64,000 bases of DNA from Zootoca vivipara (taxonomy: Eukaryota), in assembly GCF_963506605.1 (NCBI RefSeq), contig NC_083292.1, forward strand, positions 38,316,001 to 38,380,000. The letters run 5' to 3'. Both the position numbers and the translations under genes were made by a program. Under the pieces are notes generated by a model. It was not told the origin of the DNA and made no database searches. It saw nothing but the letters and a program-made list of their open reading frames with translations. Positions 5,117-18,253 of the stretch are shown here, in pieces (within the stretch, counting starts at the first letter, position 1; each line of letters begins with the position of its first letter).

Positions 5117-7127
5117 TATACAATTCAATAAGGGGTGATGGCAAACCTCTAAAGATTTCTACTCTTCCACCTCCACGAAATCCTAGGAGAAGGAAGTCTC
5201 ACCTCCTCAAAAAAACAAAACAAAACACCCCATCACAAATGTTGTGTATCTTGGGAGGACAAATTTTCTTTCACCCAACCCCCAATCTGAGAATAAAATT
5301 GTTCACCCCTCTCAATAAACTATATGCTTTATATATATTTGTGTGTGGCAATATTAAAATTTTCCTCAGATTTTTTTTTTGGGGGGGGGAGCAGAGAAAA
5401 GAAGGGATCTGGAAATTGCTGTCCATCCCCTTTTACTCTCCCAGGATTGTTTTTTTCTACTTTTGCTGGGGGGGGAGGGTTGAAGAGAAGGGGGGGAAAC
5501 AGGTCAAACCCCTGAAAATGTTTAACTTATTTAAAAGGGTTGAAATCTGGCATTGCTTTCTCAAGTCTACTTTGCTCCCCTAAAATGTTTATTTATCCTG
5601 GGACCTTCTGCATGCAAAGCGTGTGCTCTATCACTAACTTATGCACCCCCCTCAATTTCTTTAATACATATAGGGAGAGAGAAATCCCAGGTTCCCCCCC
5701 CATATTCCTTCACTATGCCTTCAAATCAGGACTGAGCTGCATCCTTCTCCCTATTCCCCCCCCCCCGCAACCCCATTCTATTTTAATGTTGAGATACTCT
5801 ATATCAGTGGTGAAAAAGGGCCATATTTGATGAAGTGAAGGGCCATGAGGGCCAACCAAAGTTGTTGAGCTTTTTTAGGGTTGAGGTTGTTGAGGTTTTT
5901 TTTAGGATTTTAGGAAATAAACCAACCGGCAGGCCGGATTAGGCCCCCGAAACCAACTTTGGACATGCGTGTTCTATATGCAACCTCATATTGTCCCTGC
6001 CTTCTCAAAGGAGTTTTGAGATGGACTCCTTTCTCTCCCTGCATTTTTTAGATCTCACCTCGCCAGTGTGAAGGGGAGCACCAATCTCCCCATGCTCTCA
6101 ATATTATTTTCATGCACAACCCCACCATCCCAGGTTTTTCAGGAGGGAGCACCCATCTTCCTTTCCTCTCAAAGCAGAACTCAGATGCCCCCATCTCCTC
6201 CAGTCTGAGACCCTCCCCACTCCTCGCAGTTCCAGGTTTCTGTTGAGATACATGGATTTTTGGAGTTGGGGGGGGAGGACAGCACCCATCTCCCTTCCTT
6301 TCACCCCCCCGCCAAAAAATCTGCTTGACCTCTCAAAGCAACATTGAAACGGACCCTTCCAACCATCGTGAGCGCCATTCCATCCCAAGTTTGTTTTTGT
6401 GAGTAGGAAACAGAAGAAACCACCATCCTCCTCCTCACTTCCTCCTCTTTCAAAACAGGACTGAAGTGGACCAGTCCCACACCATTTTGAGGTGCCCCCT
6501 CCCAGGATCTATTTACACCGAGATGCACTGAAAAGAGGCGAAGCCCCATGTTATTCTGACTTCCCTCTTTGGGCTCCCCAGAGGGCTTTGTTGGGGGTCA
6601 TCCCTTCCCACATTTTAAGTCTTCAACACCCCCCCCAATCCATCCCATGTTGGGGTGTTGCTCTTTTTCTCTATTTTTGCAGGAGGGAGGAGGAACCGTC
6701 AGCCTGCACCCCCTCCACACACAATTTCCTACCCCCTCAAAGCAGGACTGAAATGCCCCCCCCAATACCAGAACCTCCCCAGTTTATTTAAGCTAATATC
6801 CACTGAGGGATGAAAACCGCCAGCCTATTCTGTACCTCCCCCACTTGTAACCCCCTTGGTGGGGGGGGCCTTGTCCCCCAATCCCTGATTTTGAGAACCC
6901 CCCATCCATTTATGGTGAAATATTCCTCCTTCCCCTCCCATCCCTGTAGCGCCAGACCCTCCTCCCCATTACTCCTCCACAACCCCATCAATGCAGAAGC
7001 CCACCCCATTTTGAGGTCGCCCCCCCTAATAAATCTCCCTCCGCGCCCCCACCCCTTTAATCGAGGCCTCGTGGGCGGGGCCTGGCGAGGCCCCACCCCC
7101 TTAAAGGGGAAGGGCTTTCGGGCCTAC

Positions 7128-7300
7128 CTGCTCGGCTCCGGCTCCCTGGAGCGCCCCGGTGTCGTGTCCGCCTCGGAGAGGGGCAGCTCGCCCAGCGGCT
7201 CCGCAGGCTCCCCGCCAGGTCCCTCTCCCGACTGCGGGGCGGCCTCCGCCTCCTCGACCGCTTCCTGCTTCTCCGCTCCGGCCCGGCCCCGGGTCCCCTC
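7128..7300 (-). other. ZNF687: Non-coding first exon of the next minus-strand gene, probably ZNF687 (coding exons would lie left of this window)
   Basis: Minus-strand donor GAGCAG|GTAGGC at 7128/7127 inside a CpG island, with a G-rich sense-strand tract downstream as at the PSMD4 and PIP5K1A first introns. Identity rests only on synteny (PIP5K1A-PSMD4-ZNF687 are co-oriented in mammals). No coding sequence seen; the 5' end is approximate. Confidence 0.5.
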
Positions 7301-7979
7301 ATTGGCGAGGCTGGTTGCCGCTCTGAGGGTGACCTCCCGGTTGCCTGGCGCTCCATTGGGCGAACGGGACGTCGGTCAAGAGAGGCTCCCGGTCTCCCCG
7401 CCCGCCATTGGGCAAAAGCGGCTATCAGTCAAAGAGTACGTTCCGCCCTCCCCAAACTCGGTCCTCGTCGGGGGCGGGGCACAATCGTTCCGCTCGCTGG
7501 GCAGCCCTACTGGCTGGGAGGCCTGCCGCTCAAATGGCTCGCGCCCTCCTCATCCGCTGTCTATTTGGTGCTTTGCCAAGCAGAGCCAGGAGGAGAGATG
7601 TAGTCAGCTGGGTGAGCCTCCCACCGGCCAGCGTCTATTGGCTAAGGTATACCTATCATTCTCCAAGATATCCAACTAACTATTGGCTAGGGCTGCTTGC
7701 CACTCAGCTCGGTGCCAAACAGCCTTTCTATTGGCTGCGAGCCTCAAGGCGGCCGGGCTTTAATTTCATTCGCTGGCCACCTGAGGGAATACAGAAACGG
7801 CAGCAGGTGCCCATTGGCTGAGGCTTCCCGTCTCAGACAAGAACCGCCTATTAGTATTCGGCAGGGGAGATGGGCGGGGCTTGCAGGGGGCGGGAAATAG
7901 CGTCCCACTCTCTACCTTCTAATTGGCTGTACTTCGTGCTTTTTAAAACGAACAAACCACCAGCGAAATAAAAAAAATT

Positions 7980-8058
7980 CCTTCAGTAGCGCCTTAAAGA
8001 CCAACTAAGTTTTTTATTTTGGTATGAGCTTTCGTGTGCATGCACACTTCGTCAGATC
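7980..8058. mobile_element. Short Penelope-like retroelement fragment
   Basis: CAGTAGCGCCTTAAAGACCAAC...GGTATGAGCTTTCGTG...CACTTC resembles common reptile Penelope termini (recall). Confidence 0.4.
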
Positions 8059-10604
8059 CAGCACTTAGGCTTATTGGGGGAAATCCGTGTCACTCAAATG
8101 AGTTGCCCCCGCCTGAGGCGTCTCACGTCACTTTACTATTGGAAGGCGGGCCGTATTCTTGCCATTCAAAATAATGACTGAGCCCTCTAATAGCTGCACG
8201 CGTGAAGGAACGCCGAAGATCTGGGTGGCGATTGGCCAAAGCAAACGTCCGTCCAAACACTCCTCGCAGGAGGCAGAATGAATGGAAAGCAGCAGTGCCG
8301 CAAGGGATTCTGGGATAGTGGCCTTTAAATGAAGACGCGCAAAGGAGGTCTGAGCGTGAGGCATTATGGGGGAGTAGCGCACGGGATTCTGGGTAATGAC
8401 ACCCTTGACCTAACAAATTGATTCTTTTACATCTGGATCAAACCTTACACAACTGCACCTTCTTGCACCTTCACAACTGCAAGCTCCATTTAGGACATGT
8501 TATTTAATATTAATTAATGGTATTACAACTTAATTTTTTTATTGTTATAAATAATGTTTCTACCAAGGTTGCGGGACACCTGCAGCATGCAATGTGCTGC
8601 TGAGCTATAAGTGGTCAGCATGGCCAGTCCTTGGCGGGAGTTGTAGCGCAGCAACAATGGAAGTGCCTAGGGTTCTTGCCTAGGGAACTTTCCAAAGAGG
8701 AATACAACAGGAAGAGCCTCCCAACTGTGTATGCTCTGTACATTTAAAGCACCCTCCCCAAAAATCCTGGGAACTGTAGTTTACAGAGCTACAATACTCA
8801 GGAAAATTCTAGTCCTCATGGTTCTGATATAAAACAGGAAACTTCCGAGTCAGACCACTGGTGGTCTGTGTACCTCGATGCGGCTCAAGACGGCGACCAA
8901 CAAGTTAAAGCATGCAGTGCCCTCAAGGCCTCCCCGTCCCCTTTTCTCTGAGCCTGGGAGGCATTGTCCTTTGTCCTCCCACCTTGCCAAGGGGAGCCAA
9001 ATGATTTTCATCTCCCGCCGTCCACTTCTCCTTCGCTGCCCTATCGCTGTGATTGGGGTGCATCAGCTTGTAAACAATCTTGCTTTTATGTGCCTCCGAA
9101 ATCAGGCTCTTTCCACCCCGCCACCCTCCCTGAGAGCCAAGGCCTTTCGCTTGGAAGTTTTCCGAGCCGATCGAGTGATGCGGCAGTTTCTCCCGAAAAC
9201 AGGGCCTCGTCTGTGCCTCGGTCCGCTCCGTTTTCAACAGCGAGGTTATCGGGGGAGAGCCTCGGCCTCTCTTTCAAAAGGGCCTTTTCTTCCCAGCATG
9301 TCAGGTGGTGGAACCTGAGAGAGTCGGCCGCAAGCCAGAAAGCTTTTGGCTGGAGGAATGAAGTCTCCTTTCCTCGCCCCCCCCCCCCCCCGACTTCTGC
9401 CGCTCCTCAGAGGGCTCCTGGAATAAAGGGTTGACTATCCTTTAAGTGTAGATCAGAACATCCGCAAAACACGAGGTTGCCATATTTTATTGCATGCTTT
9501 TGAACGACAGTGGGGGAGAGACAAAGGGAAATTCAGCAGCAGGTCAAATCCTGCTGAATGTAAGGATTAGCGGGGGAGGAGGCAGGCTTCACCAGACGAA
9601 TATCTGCCTATTACACGGCAGCCACGCTGGAGAGGAAACTGCTGTAGTTGTAATTCCACCTGTCACTTTATTGAATATAATTTCTTTAAAAAACAGCACA
9701 ACAATCTGCGCTCTTGAAGTAAGCAGCAAATAATTGTAGCGTTGGAAGGGACCTGCAAGGGTCATCTAGCGCAACCCCCTGCAATTTGTCTTGCTTGTCT
9801 GGATGAGGGATGGAGGGGTGTGTGTATGTGTGTACTCAAACAGAGGAAACATATAGACAGACTGCCTTACAGTGAGTCGGACCATTGTGGTCCATTTAGC
9901 TCAATATTGTCCTCACTGACTGGCAGCAGCTCTCCAGGTTTTCGGAGAAGGGGGTTGTCCAAGCCCTAAGTCGAAACGCCAGAGATCAAACCAGGGATGT
10001 TCTGCGTGCAAAGCAGGTGCTCTGCCACAGAGGTATACAGCCGTTCCCTTAAAAATAGGCTTAAGATTCTCATCCTCATGGTTAAAGGTCTGTTTGCAGT
10101 ATTGCACTCTAGAGTCCAAGCAGGGAATGAAAAAAGAAGAGTGTCTATCAGGGCATGAGCAGAGTGCACCCACTTTCTCATTAGGAGATTGGGTATCCCA
10201 GCCAGAGATCCTTTTTAACTGTAAAATACGATGAAGGTTCATGCCAAATGCTTGCCTTACTCCGAATGCATTCATTGAAATTAAGGGGAATTTGCAGGGG
10301 TTGGTCTAGATGTCCTCAGGGTCCCTTCTATCTCCAGAATTCTGCGATTAACTTAGATCTATTGGTTTCAGGGAGTCTCCTTCCACTTCGCTGGATGCAA
10401 CCCTCTGTAACCCTCAGCCCACAAGTGGAAACAGAACTAGCCCTATAGAAAAGGCCTTTGCACCTTGCTGGGCAGCAGGTATTTGGGGGCAGAAGGTGGG
10501 GAGAGGCGGCAAAAATTTATTCAGTGCCCCCATGAGAGCCTGGAGCTGGGATGTGCACAGAGGGGGCTATTGTTTGGTAGGGCTCTGTGCCAGGCAGCCG
10601 AGAC

Positions 10605-10614
10605 TTTATAAGAG
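10605..10614 (+). promoter_or_regulatory. TATA box of the SFTPC-like gene
   Basis: TTTATAAGAG about 85 nt upstream of the ATG at 10692, consistent with a TSS near 10635-10640. Confidence 0.6.
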
Positions 10615-10691
10615 CTTCCCGCTGGCATCTCACACGCCTACGGAGAAGCCAAAGTCTGGATCCATTCAGCCCTACCGTTGGGGAAGAGAAA

Positions 10692-11155
10692 ATGGTGAGC
10701 GAGGACAAGAACCCCGAATCATGGCCGGCAGGGCTGCACCTCAAGAGCCCACCCTACGTAAGTAGTTCACTTTAGAAGTGAGGGGGGGAAGGCCACCTCA
10801 ATTTTTAAACCCCATTGTGTCTCCCGTTCCTTTAACCGCTGCTCAACAGGCAGGAATCCATCAGGGGAAGTTCTTCCCAGCCTTGTGTGGTTGCCGTGTG
10901 CAATGGCGGGGGAGAGAAGCTGCACCGGTGGGATTTCTGCCTGCTGCCCTGCTAGGGGGTAGGGGTGCAACTTCCAGTGTGGGAATGCCTACGGTTATTG
11001 ACTTGCCATTTTTTAAATCTTCGGGGCTCGGTTCTCCAGCGCGACGAGAGCACTCTGAAGCATGTGCAGAGTGCAAATGCAGAAACAGGCTGACATTTCA
11101 CAGATTTTAGAAAAGGGATTTCAGGTGCTGTGAGATGCCATTACCTTCATCTTTC

Positions 11156-11210
<55 letters not shown>

Positions 11211-14200
11211 CTCTCCCTTCTCAACCCTTCCCCAATTTTTGTTCAGACTCTCCACTCCAGCCTTGAGCTGGCAGAGCCTCCTGTCGCCTCAAACCGCAAG
11301 CTGGTGATTCTGATGGTGGGCGCCGTCTCAGCCCTCAGCATCAGCATCGTGGGGGTCCTGCTGGCCACCTACCTCGGGCGGGCGGACTGCATCCAGGTAC
11401 GTTACGGAGGGACAGTGGTGACGGAGGCAGCACCTGCCTTCTGCCTTCATAGACGGAAGTCCTGGGGGTCTGAATCCAGCACATTCTGCCTTCCGCCACT
11501 GCAGAAGTCTTGGGTGGCCAGATCCAGCACCTTTGGCCAAGGCAGCCGCATTTCAATCTGTTTCCCCGTTTCCTTTCTCGGCAGAGAGACTCCTTCAGCT
11601 TCCTCCCTCCCCAAGTCAACGTCCAGAACGAAGCGTCTCTCTTGCTGGCGCTCAGCGAACTGGGTGAACAAGGCGTCGCTCCAGGAATCACCTGCGACTT
11701 AAGAAACGTGAGTCGCAGAATCGCCAATAGGGCCAGAATTAGTGTCACAAGAGGTTATGAGGACAGTGTTGCTGTTTTTATCTCCCAGTAGGGTGTCCTT
11801 AAGTTGTCCGGTAGTGCCTTAGCGGTGACTGAACCACACTAAGGTGGATTTAAGAACATAGGAAGCTGCTTTGAGTCAGACCGGTGGTGGATCTATCTAC
11901 AACGACTGACAGCAGCTGTCCAGGGCTTCAGGTTGTGAGGTTTTTCTGGAGATACTGGCAATTGGACCGGGAACCTTTTGCATGCCAAGCAGACATGGCA
12001 GCTCTTTCACTGAGCTACTGCCNNNNNNNNNNNNNNNNNNNNNNNNNNNNNNNNNNNNNNNNNNNNNNNNNNNNNNNNNNNNNNNNNNNNNNNNNNNNNN
12101 NNNNNNNNNNNNNNNNNNNNNNNNNNNNNNNNNNNNNNNNNNNNNNNNNNNNNNNNNNNNNNNNNNNNNNNNNNNNNNNNNNNNNNNNNNNNNNNNNNTT
12201 TCAAGCTCTCTCTAGAGCAGGCATGGCCAAACTTGGCCCTCCAGATGTTTTGGGACTACAACTCCCATCATCCCTAGCTAACAGGACCAGTGGTCAGGGA
12301 TGATGGGAATTGTAGTTCCAAAACATGCCTACTCTAGAGATATCCAAAGTGCATCAGAGTTAATTAAACCACACTGAGGTGCTCTTAGGAGCATGGGAGT
12401 GGCTCTTTTATTTATTTGAAATGTATAGCCTGCGTTAATGCAATAAAAAAAGACAGAGCTGAAAACAAAAATAACCTTTGCAAAATGGATGAGATGTAGC
12501 GGAAACAACAGCCAGGCTGAACGACCCGAAAATCATACCTGGGGACAGGAGGGAGAGTGGGATTCGGACGCTGCTGGGCCAAGGGGTTTGGGAGCCTCCT
12601 CTGCCTGGTCCACCTCTCCCCTCTCTCTCCCCCAACAGCACTTGATGGTGTACCATGGCCAGCCAGAAGGGTGTGTGGCCCGAAAGATGGAGGTGTCTGA
12701 ACCGCTCCCCTCCTGCCAGGAACTGGAGGCGTACTTCCAAGCTGTCTTGGTGAGGATCAGCAGGTGTCCTGGAGGCGGTGCTAGGCCATAGCTGCCAAGT
12801 TTTCCCTTTTCTCGCGAGGAAGCCTATTCAGCATAAGGGAAAATCCCTGTAAAAAAGGGATAACTTGGCAGCTATGTGCTAGGCACATGGGGAGTAGCTT
12901 GGACTTATGGCCCTTGCCCTGAAAGCAAAGCAAGATCCTAGTCCTCATTGTTTTGAGGACAGGGCTGATTTGAACAGGAGCAGAGGGAAGTGCCTTAGAG
13001 CAAAGGTCCATCTTGAGAAACTGAACCTTCTGTATTTGAGGCATCAGCTCTACCACTGAGCTACGGCCCTTTCCTTAAAAGTAATTCTAAGATTCCGGTC
13101 GTCATGGTTCTGAAAGAAACGCTGACATATAATTAAATGCAGCATCTCAAAACAAAGCAATCATGGCGCCGCCTTTGAACTGTTATTTTAAACATGATTA
13201 ATGCAGACATGATCAGTAGTGGTTTATTATTTTATACATAAAGGCATTTTTTTACTTTATACATTTTTATCTGTATGCAAACTCGTTTAATAATAGTTTG
13301 GTAATAGTTGATCTCTGGTTTTAAAAATACGGTTTTAACTGTACGGTTTTATGTGTGACTGCTGGAAACTGCTCTGATTTCTCCCCCCCCCCCCCTTGAA
13401 CAAATACCAGTATATAGCTGTTGTTATATACTGCAAACCAACAAATTATACCAGCCGACTGAAAATCATACGGTTAAAAGCGATTTAGCAGCACAAACCC
13501 CCTGCATGTTTGCTCTGAAGTAAGCCCCACTTGTTCAAAGGGTTTTACTCTCAGGTAAATAGGCCTAGCGGGGGTTGCAGACTTAGAGGTGTTTCATCTG
13601 ACAACAGACTGCAGTTTAACTAATATAGGTGCCAACTAAGGGAGCCAAAAAAGGGGGTAACTCATCCTTCAAGGTGTATTCGGGGGGGGGGGTCTGAAGA
13701 GTCTTGCTTCCAGCTTCAAGACTTGTGGACTGGGGTCCACCTCTTCAGATGCATGAAGTATCATCTTGAGTTGCAAATATAACACCCACAGGTGCTCAGA
13801 GGGGTGGTTGTGGTTCTGAATTCAGAAGGAAGTTTGCAGCAAGTTTAAGGACAAGTACCATATACTTGTCCTTAAACTTTAAGTTTGAGGACAAGTACCG
13901 TATAAGGGACGCGGGTGGCACTGTGGGTTAAACCACAGAGCCTAGGGCTTGCCAATCAGGTCGGCGGTTCGAATCCCCATGAGGGGGTGAGCTCCCGTTG
14001 CTCGGTCCCTGCTCCTGCCAACCTAGCAGTTCGAAAGCGCGTCAAAGTGCAAGTAGATAAATAGGGGGAAGGCAAACAGCGTTTCCGTGCGCTGCTCTGG
14101 TTCGCCAGAAGCGGCTTGGTCATGCTGGCCACATGACCTGGAAGCCAATAACACGAGATGAGCGCCGCAACCCCAGAGTCGGTCACGACTGGACCTAATG

Positions 14201-15547
14201 GTCAGGGGTCCCTTTACCTTTACCATATACCTAACAGAGTTATGTAGCTAGGTTGGAGTGTCTAAACCAAAACAGTCCAAAAACACTAAAGTGAAGACCC
14301 AGTGTCAATAAGCAGGGAGTTCCAGAGATCGGTGATGTCTCATTAAAGGGCTGAGAATGTGTGTGAGTACAGCAGCAAGGATTCTCTGTGCACAGAAATG
14401 GAAGGAGAGAAAACACACCCAGAGGAAGAATGGTTGATGAAAACCTTGGAATATGCAGAGATGGCAAAATTGACGGCACTGATAAAAGATACAAATTTAG
14501 AATGTTTTAAAGAAGACTGGAAACCATTTCAAGTTTTTATAAAAAGTTACTTCCCGTATGTGAAGACCACAGCGGGGATTGAAATGTAAGAAAACAGCAG
14601 AATATATTAAGAAACATTTTAGAAATTTGGTAAGACGGAACCTTCAAATGCAATTGTGTGTAACTTGCGTCATATTGAGAGCATGAAGCGAAAACATTGT
14701 ATATAGCAGTTGTCAAACCTGCTTTTGCTGGCTCGGTTTCTTGTTGCAGAAAAACGCCACGCTGGGTATCACCTCGGAGGTGCAGATCGTGGGGACAGCA
14801 TCCCTGGGCAGCCTCACCACACTGCTGTGTAGCAACAAGCCCACCTACCTGGTCAACAGTTTTGCACGTAAGTAGGGTGGAAAGGTGCCGCTGGAGTGGA
14901 CTGTACAGATTGTACCTCTGTCGGAGGGTGGGGGGGAAGACAGAGAGATAAAGGTCTGGATATCTGATTTAGGAGCTGGGAGGAAGCTTTGAACTATACG
15001 TCCCAGCAACAGCAGCAACCCTGGCCATTTGGCCAATGCTTGCTAGGGCTGATGGGAGTTGTAATTCAGCAACAGCTGGAGGGCCGAAGGTTCCCCCACA
15101 CTTTGTTTAGAGATACCCAGATCTCTCTCGCTCGGTAAAAATCCAGCCGATGTAGTTTGTAAAATGCCCAATTTTGGAATGTGCCAAAAGTTCCTCTAGT
15201 CCAAGGAGGGCTAATCCCTGGTTTGGGGAGCCGGTTTGCACATACACACCCAAAAGAATTTGGATCAAGTTTTTTTTTTAATGATTAAAGTAGACACAGG
15301 ATTGCACACAGAAGCTTTTTGGAAAAAGGTGAGAGAATGGCATCAAAGGCGCCCTTTGGTTGGAAAAGGGAGAGCTTACATCACAAGAGCCTTTTGGCAG
15401 AACGGGGAATAGAATAGCATCGCACACAAACACAACAGGGGATGCCTTTCCTGTTAGACAGAACTTGTTTAGCCCACCTCTTCTTAAAATATACTTTCCC
15501 ATTTCTTTGCAGCTTCTCCAAGGCACACCATGAGCAGACTTGCTTAA
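10692..15547 (+). CDS. Pro-surfactant-protein-C-like type II membrane BRICHOS-domain protein (probable SFTPC paralog), 191-200 aa
   Basis: GT-AG exons: 10692-10757 (MVSEDKNPESWPAGLHLKSPPY), 11247-11396 (TLHSSLELAEPPVASNRKLVILMVGAVSALSISIVGVLLATYLGRADCIQ, single TM), 11585-11707 (123 nt, ...LALSE...GITCDLRN), 12639-12749 (111 nt, HLMVYHGQPEGCVARKMEVSEPLPSCQELEAYFQAVL), 14750-14867 (KNAT...SLGSLTTLLCSNKPTYLVNSFA). It then either reads through RK-stop (14875) or splices to 15513-15547 (PSPRHTMSRLA-stop). Introns 1-4 are phase 0 and the frame is open. BRICHOS Asp and both Cys are present. Confidence 0.85.
11151..11212. repeat. (CTTT)n microsatellite just upstream of the SFTPC-like exon 2 acceptor
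   Basis: Seen directly. Confidence 0.95.
12023..12198. other. Assembly gap (N run)
   Basis: 176 N. Confidence 1.
12218..12331. mobile_element. hAT-type MITE with 8-bp TSD
   Basis: CAGGCATG...CATGCCTA termini flanked by CTCTAGAG on both sides; internal GGACTACAACTCCCATCA/TGATGGGAATTGTAGT palindrome. Many degenerate copies of this family occur through the window. Confidence 0.8.
13906..14224 (+). mobile_element. Sauria SINE (lacertid POM/Squam1 type), near full length
   Basis: tRNA-like head GGGACGCGGGTGGCACTGTGG...GGTTCGAATCCCC, Bov-B-like 3' part GAGTCGGTCACGACTGGACC, (CCTTTA)n tail, imperfect TSD TACC(G/A)TATA. Confidence 0.9.
14415..14700 (+). mobile_element. L1-like LINE 3' fragment in intron 4 of the SFTPC-like gene
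   Basis: EEWLMKTLEYAEMAKLTALIKD...EDWKPF resembles the squamate L1 ORF2 C-terminus; related sequence at about 46250-46430. Confidence 0.6.
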
Positions 15548-15791
15548 GACAAGCCGGGAAGTTGTGCAGATCACCAATTAACATCTCCTCTTCCCTCCTC
15601 CCTGCAAAAACCCCCAAGACGTGACAAAGGACCTCAGAATGGCGCGTGATCCTGTCACTATTGATTCCCCCCATATAGTATGTGGGGAGGGGGCTGAGAC
15701 CCTGTTTCACTGCAGCTCAAATTTGTATGTGATTTCCCCCCCCTCCCTGCAACTCCTTGTCATAACCAAATCATTAGCAATAACAAGAATT

Positions 15792-15797
15792 ATTAAA
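15792..15797 (+). terminator. Probable polyadenylation signal of the SFTPC-like gene
   Basis: ATTAAA followed by a GT-rich element (gtgtttgtgtgt, about 15811-15822). Confidence 0.45.
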
Positions 15798-18253
15798 AAA
15801 AACTGAAAGGGTGTTTGTGTGTCCATTTCAGGGTAGAGTGTTTTGAAAAGGCAAACTCGAGTAGCGTTGGGGCAACACAGCCACAATTCTGCATTGGCAC
15901 AGATTGCGATATTAAATTTCCTGAGAATCTGAGCAAAATACAACACAAGAAAGCTCAGCCTCCCTTATTCAATGTGACATGTGCCCTCTGGCGGGAGAAA
16001 GGATCACTGCATCACACACAAATCTTTGTTTCCATCGCCCAATCTCAAATATTAAACATCTTCCTGCACTTGCCAATTTGTGGCCCTCTGCCTGGTCATT
16101 TGCATAACTTTATAGTGCTCTGCATCACTGCTCATTTGCTGCTTGATAGGCGAGGGTCCCCAAGTTGGCTGCTTTCGGTCCTTCCTGCAGAAGCGCAGCT
16201 GCCTCACCAAAACATCTGTGCTCATCAGCTAAGGAGGGTTTGCAGGAAGAGCAGTACCCATTGGCTATGAAAATGCTGAAGTTTTCTGCACTTGCTCAGC
16301 TGCAGAAAACTTGCCTGCCTCTAGTAAAATTAAAACAAGCTTAATTTTTTAATCCATTTAGGCTATATATACTGCTTCATCACAATAGTCTCAAAAGCTC
16401 TGATTTTAGAGAAACATAGAACTGAAGAGTTGGGGTCATTTGGTCCACCCCCCAATGATGAAGGGAGGAGCATCCATCAGCTTCTGAGTCGGTTTCACTG
16501 TTGCCAACAGCTCTTGCTGTTAGAAAGTTCTCCCTGATGTTTAGCCGGAATCTCCTTTCTTGTCATTTGAATCCATTGCCTTAACTCCTTCCCTCTGGAT
16601 CCGAGCATTAAATGTACATTCCCCTCTCTCACAAACCAGGGTTCCTGGCTTATACTAAAAATTCCAGGACATGTATATATATTTTTAAAAAGTTTATGCA
16701 AATGTCTTCTGAGGCTACATTTCTGGGGTACTTAAGTTCCCTGGTCAGCTTCGGAAGTACTCTAGGAAGTTCCGACCAAATTTTTTGCACTCTACTAAAA
16801 GTTTCCCTCACTGCACAAACTGCACTGTTTCAAAACAAGGCAACTTCAGACATGGGTTATGAGGCTGGCTTGTTTAACTAACCACTCAGCTGTGAACCAT
16901 GATTCCTGCTAGAGCCCTGTGCAACAGAATAAGCCGGCTTTCTATGAAAGGGAAACTGATATTAGGTTCTGCTTGGCTTCTGGCTTCGCAGGAGCTTGAA
17001 CCCTTGGCTTTGCCCCTGCTCAGCTAGAATGTAGCATCCTTGCATTGGTACCTGTGGGGTCGAAGGAAGCTGCCCAACTCCTTAACATAAGATTCCAGTT
17101 AAATGGGAATGAAAGCAGCTAACATTTGGGGCTGAACACCTTTTTAAAAAAGAAGAAGAGGGGTTTCCTTGGAGAGCAACTCAGTCATTTAAAAGCACCA
17201 GATGGCAAAATTCAATTTTCAGACCGCATGATATACTTTTGATACTGGCTGCTGGGAAGTATTTGTTGGGAAGGAGTTTATGAATCCATTCATGGCTATG
17301 GTAGACATTCAGCCATAAGGACTAATAGGCCTCAGCTCCCATCAATTCATGTAATCCAAATCCATCCAAACTGATGGCCAATCTCTGCTTTTTGTAACAA
17401 GGGTCGTAGTTGGATGGTTTAGAATTGTAAGCCTTCAGGTAGGGACTGACTTAATTCTCCATGTACGTAAGACAGTCTGGAAGCCTCTTTGGCTGAAGAG
17501 AGTGGTGCAAATAAATACATACAAAAACTAGAAAGCCCTGTGAAAAACTGCAACTCAATCACATCTTTATATAAATCTATCACACAGAATACACTTGGGA
17601 TACTGCGTGTGGCTCTAATCACCTTGCCTCAAAAACGATACTGTAGAGCCGTTAAAGGTCCAGAAAAGGGCCACCGAAATGATCCAGGGGGGTGGAGTGA
17701 CCCCCGCATGAGGAATGTTTGCGGCCTTTGCAGCCTTTTAAAGAAAGGGCAGGACAGAGGAGACACAACAGAGGTTCAAAGTGGCAAAAGTGGAGAGAAG
17801 CTTTTCTCTCTCAGTGCTGTCAAACTGTGTCAAAAGGCACAGTGATTCAGGATGCGCAAAAGGGTTAGGGTTAGGGGTGTCCTTTGAACACCTGGAGGGC
17901 TGCAGCTTTGGGGAAAGGGTGTTCCAACCCATAATAAGCCCACCTGCTTCCTAGTTTCCCCTTTTTGTCATGGGCGCTAAAGCCTTGCGTCTGTTGAAAC
18001 CAGAACCTTGAGTTCTCTGTCCTGCCGGCAGCTGGAAGCTTTCCGGTGGCCGCAGTGCGTGCGCCTCTCAACCTCTTCACGCCAATTTCGTGGCAGGGAA
18101 ACGAAGGTGCCTGCGCGCAGGGAGGGGGGCGGTGCCGTTTTGTCAGAAAGGAAAGGGAAGCTAGGAGATGGGCCGCTCACGTTCTGACATAAACCACAGC
18201 TTAATGGAAGCAGGCGGTGGAAAAACGCAACACCGCAAAGAAAATTTAAGGTT

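Follow-up and report, generated by a model that had tools for sequence, protein, structure and literature searches.

The window analysed here is a 64,000-nt stretch of the genome of the lizard Zootoca vivipara, and coordinates given without a contig name are positions in it. Its + strand carries a six-exon gene for a 200-residue protein that is letter-identical to the public protein P0063 ("uncharacterized LOC132591299", Zootoca vivipara). The segment at 11247-11396 (+), which a first-pass annotation had read as the equivalent of surfactant protein C (SP-C) within a BRICHOS protein of probable new function, is a 150-nt exon with AG..GT borders and forms exon 2 of this spliced gene. We present the gene as a member of a candidate new BRICHOS family, with a layout like that of the SP-C precursor (proSP-C, SFTPC) and no evident client of its own. 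Its features are as follows.

10692..10757, +, coding part of exon 1: residues 1-22, the cytosolic N-terminus, with SPPY as its last residues (10746-10757)
11247..11396, +, exon 2: residues 23-72, a Pro-rich cytosolic spacer, the RK pair (11295-11300), the signal-anchor helix and the juxtamembrane C70 (11388-11390)
11301..11375, +, predicted membrane helix: residues 41-65
11585..11707, +, exon 3: residues 73-113, the near-invariant linker/strand-1 region (82-98), strand 2, C109 (11693-11695) and the putative BRICHOS Asp, D110 (11696-11698)
12639..12749, +, exon 4 (111 nt): residues 114-150, strands 3-4, the putative BRICHOS Cys C125 (12672-12674) and helix 1, which starts at the extra Cys C139 (12714-12716)
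14750..14867, +, exon 5: residues 151-189, the NAT sequon (14753-14761), a predicted strand (161-164), helix 2 with the putative second BRICHOS Cys C177 (14828-14830), and strand 5
15513..15547, +, coding part of exon 6: the short, variable, Cys-free tail and the stop

Transcription and Copy Number

The gene is transcribed and spliced as modelled. All five GT..AG junctions lie within one 1,153-nt contig of run X1, so the exon is not a chance reading frame; four of the five are present in run X2, three are covered by 1-3 reads in run X20, and none is listed for run X19. The transcript extends upstream to at least 10370, and the 3' untranslated region reaches at least 15780. When the genome was searched with the gene, five exons matched at the window locus and the one match elsewhere (E 4.6) contained a stop, so the gene is single copy.

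Some database isoforms are 155-157 residues long and start at a Met inside the membrane segment; since that Met is not conserved, we do not take them as a conserved secreted form. Upstream of the coding sequence, an ATG at window 10552-10581 starts a short frame closed by TAG. The same frame is open in the Podarcis models, where it adds 47 residues, and the extension is thus not conserved.

Family Distribution and Conservation

A profile built from seven sequences gave 43 matches among 7,998 scored candidates. One is a fragment without a name, and the others come from squamates, turtles, alligator, frogs, a caecilian, a newt and Polypterus; through cluster look-ups the list grew to include crocodiles, snakes, Pleurodeles and Erpetoichthys. 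Every record with a name is labelled "uncharacterized" or "hypothetical", apart from three models that are mislabelled or fused (P0008, P0045, and a name within the cluster of P0012). An exhaustive search of 1.84 billion representatives with the family profile returned 7 matches, all of them family members or fragments. In the protein collections no match is named from mammal, bird, teleost, lungfish, coelacanth, gar or shark, which does not in itself prove loss.

Core identity to P0063 is 89% in turtle, 78% in newt, 75% in alligator, 71% in Xenopus and 56% in bichir; lizard and turtle SP-C (lizard SFTPC copy B) share 55-60%, as against the 89% between lizard and turtle here. In a tree of 36 rows and 106 columns the family is one clade at 100/100. 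Mean column identity is 0.93 for residues 82-98 and 0.92 for 104-130, and falls to 0.73 in the membrane segment and 0.38 in the tail. C70, C109, C139 and N152-x-[ST] show no exception among the sequences covering them (43/43 or 44/44), and D110 (44/44), C125 (44/44) and C177 (43/43) are likewise kept. The gene is real and expressed, and its strong conservation extends from bichirs to amphibians and reptiles.

Evidence for a BRICHOS Domain

The assignment to BRICHOS is made because the conserved Asp and Cys pair, the intron positions, a profile match and the predicted fold agree. Profile-profile alignment of the family with SP-C extends over 146 columns (probability 80, E 1.3e-5) and places D110, C125 and C177 on the conserved BRICHOS Asp and two Cys. 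In the ESM Atlas, SP-C clusters rank first for the whole protein (0.93), and the luminal part scores 0.87 with SP-C, 0.86 with ITM2 and 0.84 with gastrokine; we count these two comparisons as one source of evidence. Exon 3 ends three codons after D110 in a phase-0 intron, and the same intron was found in all 11 lizard BRICHOS paralogs examined, the donors having been sought by the intron pattern itself and the acceptors confirming the phase. The exon after this intron measures 111 nt in six of the 11 paralogs and 102-114 nt in the other five.

Two AlphaFold2 models were obtained, with mean pLDDT (predicted local distance difference test) of 60.6 and, with SP-C rows in the alignment, 62.8. Both place strands at 106-110, 115-121, 124-129 and 182-185, helices at 139-154 and 171-176, and the membrane helix at 38-67/69. 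The top six Foldseek rows for both models are proSP-C BRICHOS chains (probability 0.80-0.99, E 0.012-0.06). By VIA-align, the first model fits 2YAD best (Z 5.7, root-mean-square deviation 2.8, 68 aligned residues) and Bri2 BRICHOS next (Z 3.8), and the second model gives Z 6.7 with proSP-C BRICHOS and 5.1 with Bri2 BRICHOS. The structural matches thus recover, at moderate strength, the central sheet (strands 2-5) and its two flanking helices, and the expected order of hydrophobic anchor, linker and domain is present, the anchor (mean hydropathy 2.47) following the basic pair. The structural comparison proposed in the first-pass annotation accordingly returned proSP-C and then Bri2 as the best matches, at moderate scores.

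Several observations weigh against this assignment. Neither Pfam BRICHOS nor Pfam SP-C matched any of 11 full-length family proteins or four single exons, the search of the 1.84 billion representatives with the family profile brought up neither SP-C nor any other BRICHOS protein, and PDB sequences, searched with the single protein and with the family profile, yielded no match under E 0.1. BLASTP against lizard SFTPC copy B aligned only 38 residues (E 0.009). Both models are modest by pLDDT, by Foldseek E value and by Z scores under 8, and the alignment behind the second contained SP-C rows. Residues 88-101, where strand 1 is expected, form a low-confidence helix (pLDDT under 50) in both models, and the structural match begins only at residue 101-102. 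The distance of this region from the Asp would allow a hairpin like that of gastrokines and reptile SP-C. We predict a BRICHOS fold with moderate confidence, its strand-1 region being the tentative part.

Membrane Segment, Cytosolic Part and Tail

In the window protein, the 23 residues after RK include 8 Val/Ile and 8 Gly/Ala/Ser, with a longest Val/Ile run of 2, and there is no Cys among residues 1-69. The same 23 residues in 36 orthologs have a Val+Ile fraction of 0.26-0.43, a Gly/Ala/Ser fraction of 0.22-0.39 and a longest Val/Ile run of 1-3, as compared with 0.52-0.61, 0.09-0.13 and 7-10 in 14 SP-C rows. The poly-Val/Ile membrane helix is thus missing from 36/36 orthologs and present in 14/14 SP-C rows. 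A palmitoylatable Cys occurs in the 14 residues before the membrane segment in none of the 36 orthologs, and before the basic pair in all 14 SP-C rows. PPxY is found in 0/36 orthologs and [ST]PPY in 32/36.

Small residues occupy positions 47, 55, 58 and 62 in 43/43 orthologs, position 66 in 42/43 and position 51 in 27/43; the stripe G47-S55-G58-A62, continued by G66 and C70, runs along one side of the helix, with helical-wheel angles spanning 140 degrees. A similar anchor, Gly/Ala-rich and likewise placed after a basic pair, is found in lizard chondromodulin. From these sequences, the Val-poor segment may be an ancestral state rather than a loss, in a family that never had poly-Val.

The tail after strand 5 is variable and only 13-32 residues long (mostly 17); of 35 orthologs, one has a Cys there and one has a dibasic or RxxR site. 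Other BRICHOS families have a C-terminal region of 29-149 residues with a conserved Cys pair (PMC2751770). A C-terminal client of the kind found in ITM2, GKN, TNMD/CNMD, BRICD5 and OAF, with at least 29 residues, a Cys pair and release by a convertase, is therefore not present. Judged by sequence, both known in-cis clients, the poly-Val helix and the C-terminal hairpin, are absent from the family proteins.

These results bear out what the first-pass annotation had observed. The exon translation matches the string quoted there, Val-poor, rich in Ala/Ser/Gly and lacking a Cys before the basic pair, and these traits are family-wide in the 36 orthologs; SPPY in place of a canonical PPxY does end exon 1, and the three extra luminal Cys (C70, C109, C139) and the NAT sequon (N152) are not only present but invariant. 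The view that no classical SP-C is produced is very probably right. In genuine reptile SP-C the Val/Ile run is preserved, with one or more Cys before the basic pair (14/14). An equally Val-poor, Cys-less reptile SP-C, which would have spoken against that view, was found in none of the 14 rows, which include both SFTPC genes of the lizard.

Relationship to SFTPC and Origin of the Family

The suggestion of an SP-C with a new function did not hold, the gene being rather a separate one, at another locus and conserved to bichirs. With an SP-C propeptide model we found two tandem poly-Val SFTPC genes on another contig (G000:C6:91.61-91.63 Mb). In mammalian gene order SFTPC lies beside LGI3, and the lizard pair adjoins an EPTP-repeat (LGI3-like, LGI-family) gene; hence the orthologous position is held by two other genes on G000:C6 and not by the window gene. 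BMP1 motifs were not found in the 130 kb around the pair, so its synteny is shown on the LGI side only. Genome-wide searches with PF04089 and PF08999 did not have the window locus among their results.

That the gene might be the SP-C ortholog of the lizard, or a young copy confined to lizards, and have since degenerated or shifted in function, is extremely unlikely. It would explain why proSP-C comes closest among known proteins in profile, fold and language-model features, but it is already contradicted by the SFTPC pair, by a core only 22-24% identical to those two genes against 56% and 71% to the bichir and Xenopus orthologs, and by the taxonomic range and full support of the family clade. 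The gene is very probably a separate BRICHOS paralog that yields no SP-C peptide, and its segment is "SP-C-equivalent" only at the level of paralogy.

The family is nearest to proSP-C, and a sister relationship to SFTPC is tentatively favoured. On the family hidden Markov model (HMM), 12 of the 13 SP-C cores score higher than any of the 9 non-SP-C lizard paralogs (lizard SFTPC-A 9.7 bits, SFTPC-B 7.7, BRICD5 5.4; best of 1,100 shuffles 4.6), a profile of three SP-C sequences scores 28.2 against 22.1 for gastrokines, and in the best tree the family joins SP-C with a support of 62/82 (unstarred). The N-terminal SPP-Y, the basic pair and GxLL also align to proSP-C. These points tell against an origin from the gastrokine or BRICD5 side, with convergent likeness to proSP-C in lacking a C-terminal client, which we hold to be unlikely. 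That origin is nevertheless in keeping with a family-plus-gastrokine clade that is not rejected (approximately unbiased test, p-AU 0.128), with single-sequence hhalign scores of 24.2 for BRICD5 and 24.8 for lizard SFTPC-A, and with the predicted inter-helix strand at 161-164, a feature of other BRICHOS families absent from proSP-C (PMC9714404). The tree itself contains long branches, 14 family rows chosen across taxa and outgroup families from one species each; the family stem alone measures 2.36 changes per column and is followed by slow evolution.

A wider scenario is offered tentatively, and we consider it rather doubtful. The family would count as a fifteenth BRICHOS family and as a sister of SFTPC that has survived, a client-free membrane BRICHOS protein that the bony-fish ancestor already had. 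Lunged bichirs, amphibians and non-avian reptiles would have retained it, and teleosts, birds and mammals would have lost it. On this view the scaffold of proSP-C is older than surfactant SP-C, with poly-Val and palmitoylation as later additions to a trans-acting chaperone or adaptor of air-breathing epithelia. SFTPC has been dated to the lungfish-tetrapod ancestor, with two lungfish copies found in gill (bioRxiv 10.1101/2024.07.14.603411), and lungs are retained in bichirs and reedfish (PMC10497629). As bichirs reportedly predate SFTPC, surfactant SP-C may have arisen on a scaffold of the kind seen in this family.

Proposed Function and Alternatives

In proSP-C, conservation is higher in the membrane segment (96%) than in BRICHOS (67%) (PMC2751770), an order that is reversed in the new family. 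In proSP-C the membrane peptide is the product, and the higher conservation of the ectodomain here argues that the ectodomain is the working part. For the same reason, the "different membrane peptide" that had been suggested as a product is less favoured, and the other suggestion, that the domain may act on other clients, is plausible. We see about even chances that this predicted type II membrane protein with a BRICHOS domain remains whole, glycosylated and disulfide-dimerised, binds partners in trans and releases no surfactant peptide.

The luminal Cys suggest how such a protein might be built. C125-C177 would be the canonical disulfide, and C109-C139 could tie helix 1 to the sheet and close face A, like the extra disulfide in human proSP-C, since C139 begins helix 1 and helix 1 covers face A in proSP-C (PMC5350149, PMC11168071). 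The odd Cys, C70, is left over at the end of the Gly/Ala stripe, aligned with G58, A62 and G66, and may link two chains in a covalent membrane dimer like that of BRI2, which forms through Cys89 (PMC4578630). A complex prediction with two copies of residues 34-76 scored 0.03 against a mark of 0.32, and was used neither for nor against dimerisation. The near-invariant residues 82-98 map to the linker/strand-1 groove in which proSP-C is proposed to bind its client (PMC10182729, PMC9563204) and may be where partners bind, and the conserved [ST]PPY could act as a cytosolic sorting signal. On the other side of the balance, the membrane segment is 30-61% beta-branched once Thr is counted, so that an in-cis role keeps some probability.

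Such a role, in which the BRICHOS domain chaperones its own membrane segment as in proSP-C and the segment is later cut out as a different membrane-active peptide, seems improbable to us. It has in its favour the proSP-C architecture without a C-terminal region, the retained basic pair and GxLL, the conservation and V/I/T content of the membrane segment, and the near-invariance of the linker that proSP-C uses to trap its client. Against it stand the absent palmitoylation site, Val/Ile runs of at most 3, and a constraint on the ectodomain above that on the peptide. The Chou-Fasman beta propensity of the segment is 1.19-1.33 as compared with 1.42-1.46 for SP-C, a crude proxy for the beta-aggregation check suggested earlier. 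Also of low probability is a repurposed fold, serving as a rigid surface ligand or receptor without chaperone activity. The long stem followed by slow evolution and the extra invariant Cys and glycan site would suit it, as would the fall in Bri2 anti-amyloid activity when face A is occluded (PMC11168071), but the Asp that regulates chaperone activity is retained in 44/44 sequences, the cytosolic part has only about 40 residues and no catalytic domain, and proSP-C BRICHOS is active even with face A covered. We keep to the intact, trans-acting membrane protein as our working proposal, at the even chances stated above.

An in-cis aggregation-prone client is regarded as the key trait of BRICHOS proteins, with proSP-C alone in having no C-terminal client (PMC10182729), and a conserved vertebrate family with neither client would be a test for native in-trans BRICHOS jobs. 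Likewise, a proSP-C-like gene in bichirs would date the scaffold to early bony fishes and open a route to the origin of the surfactant peptide. Expression and knockout tests are feasible since Xenopus orthologs exist (LOC116406912, LOC108699468, LOC121397605).

Neighbouring Genes and the SFTPC Region

The gene sits between ZNF687-like and PSMD4-like genes (interval at window 7000-18000), with a C2H2 zinc-finger (zf-C2H2) gene upstream and UIM, PIP5K and YL1 genes downstream. We take these neighbours to be ZNF687, PSMD4, PIP5K1A and VPS72, presumably in the order of human 1q21. In the Polypterus model P0045, exons of the bichir ortholog are fused to MSTO1, which we assume to lie on human 1q22, a hint of an old, wider synteny block. 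Human ZNF687-AS1 presumably has a similar position and orientation in the ZNF687-PSMD4 interval, and the idea that it is a remnant of the gene got no support. ZNF687, PSMD4, SFTPC and BRICHOS had 0 matches in four supplementary files of PMC5577775.

The two SFTPC-type genes (G000:C6:91,607,700-91,630,100; L023-L026) are both complete, with cores that are 55% identical. In copy A, PPDY is split by the first intron, there is a single Cys and the Val/Ile run has 10 residues; copy B has a very Cys-rich cytosolic N-terminus, a canonical SP-C helix and no PPxY. Cys-Cys and PPxY, named earlier for SP-C, are thus not universal even among reptile SP-C proteins. Nedd4 binding by PPDY and palmitoylation of SP-C are supported by titles cited in PMC8792467. 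Fused turtle and agamid models (P0067, P0069) suggest that the pair is widespread in reptiles, and it may bear on the "SFTPC-like" paralogue of salamanders. At least four gastrokine-like genes are clustered about 320 kb away (G000:C6:91,949,000-91,994,000; L035-L039). The cluster and the pair have 138-nt and ~111-nt exons in common, which together with their proximity would fit an origin of SFTPC by tandem duplication from a gastrokine-like gene. Directly downstream of copy B is a single-exon open reading frame (G000:C6:91,636,740-91,637,369, minus strand; L026:6740-7369) with a signal peptide, RG/GG repeats, an Ala/Gly hydrophobic tract, a hydrophobic C-terminus and no Pfam match, which presumably resembles a Shadoo/prion-family gene.

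Comparison with Known BRICHOS Systems

None of the 14 BRICHOS families listed in PMC10182729 fits the new one. BRICHOS surveys were built on domains detected by SMART or HMM (PMC9627735, PMC2751770) and would likely miss it, given the lack of a Pfam match. No paper on the family was found, and the LOC identifiers of six orthologs appear in no main text searched, subscription papers and most supplements lying outside the search.

The closest known system is proSP-C/SFTPC (PF08999 + PF04089; 2YAD), with which the family shares type II topology, a length of about 200 residues, an SPP-Y-like N-terminal motif, the basic pair before the helix, GxLL, the Asp and two Cys, phase-0 introns, the 111-nt exon and the lack of a C-terminal client region; it is also the best match by profile, fold and Atlas features. 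The family differs in having no poly-Val, cytosolic Cys or PPxY, in its locus and its presence in bichirs, in its three extra invariant luminal Cys, sequon and predicted inter-helix strand, and in an ectodomain more conserved than the membrane segment.

BRI2/ITM2B (8OVI, 8OX2), the second structural match, is likewise a type II BRICHOS protein with an inter-helix strand; it carries N-glycans and forms dimers by way of a luminal Cys (PMC4578630, PMC5350149). However, it carries a furin-released C-terminal hairpin client in contrast to the short Cys-free tail of the new family, whose sequence scores to ITM2 are at background. The salamander "SFTPC-like" paralogue (PMC6191699) is another non-mammalian SFTPC relative with a proposed new role. 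As described there, it is salamander-specific, matches only SFTPC and possibly keeps the SP-C helix, whereas the new family extends from bichirs to reptiles and its sequence searches do not retrieve SFTPC; the two are set apart by description only. OAF has a predicted C-terminal mature polypeptide, occurs in humans and reaches an Atlas score of only 0.75 with the family. Added as a BRICHOS family from human models only, it is nonetheless a precedent for a BRICHOS family missed by Pfam and found by structure and profile comparison (PMC9714404).

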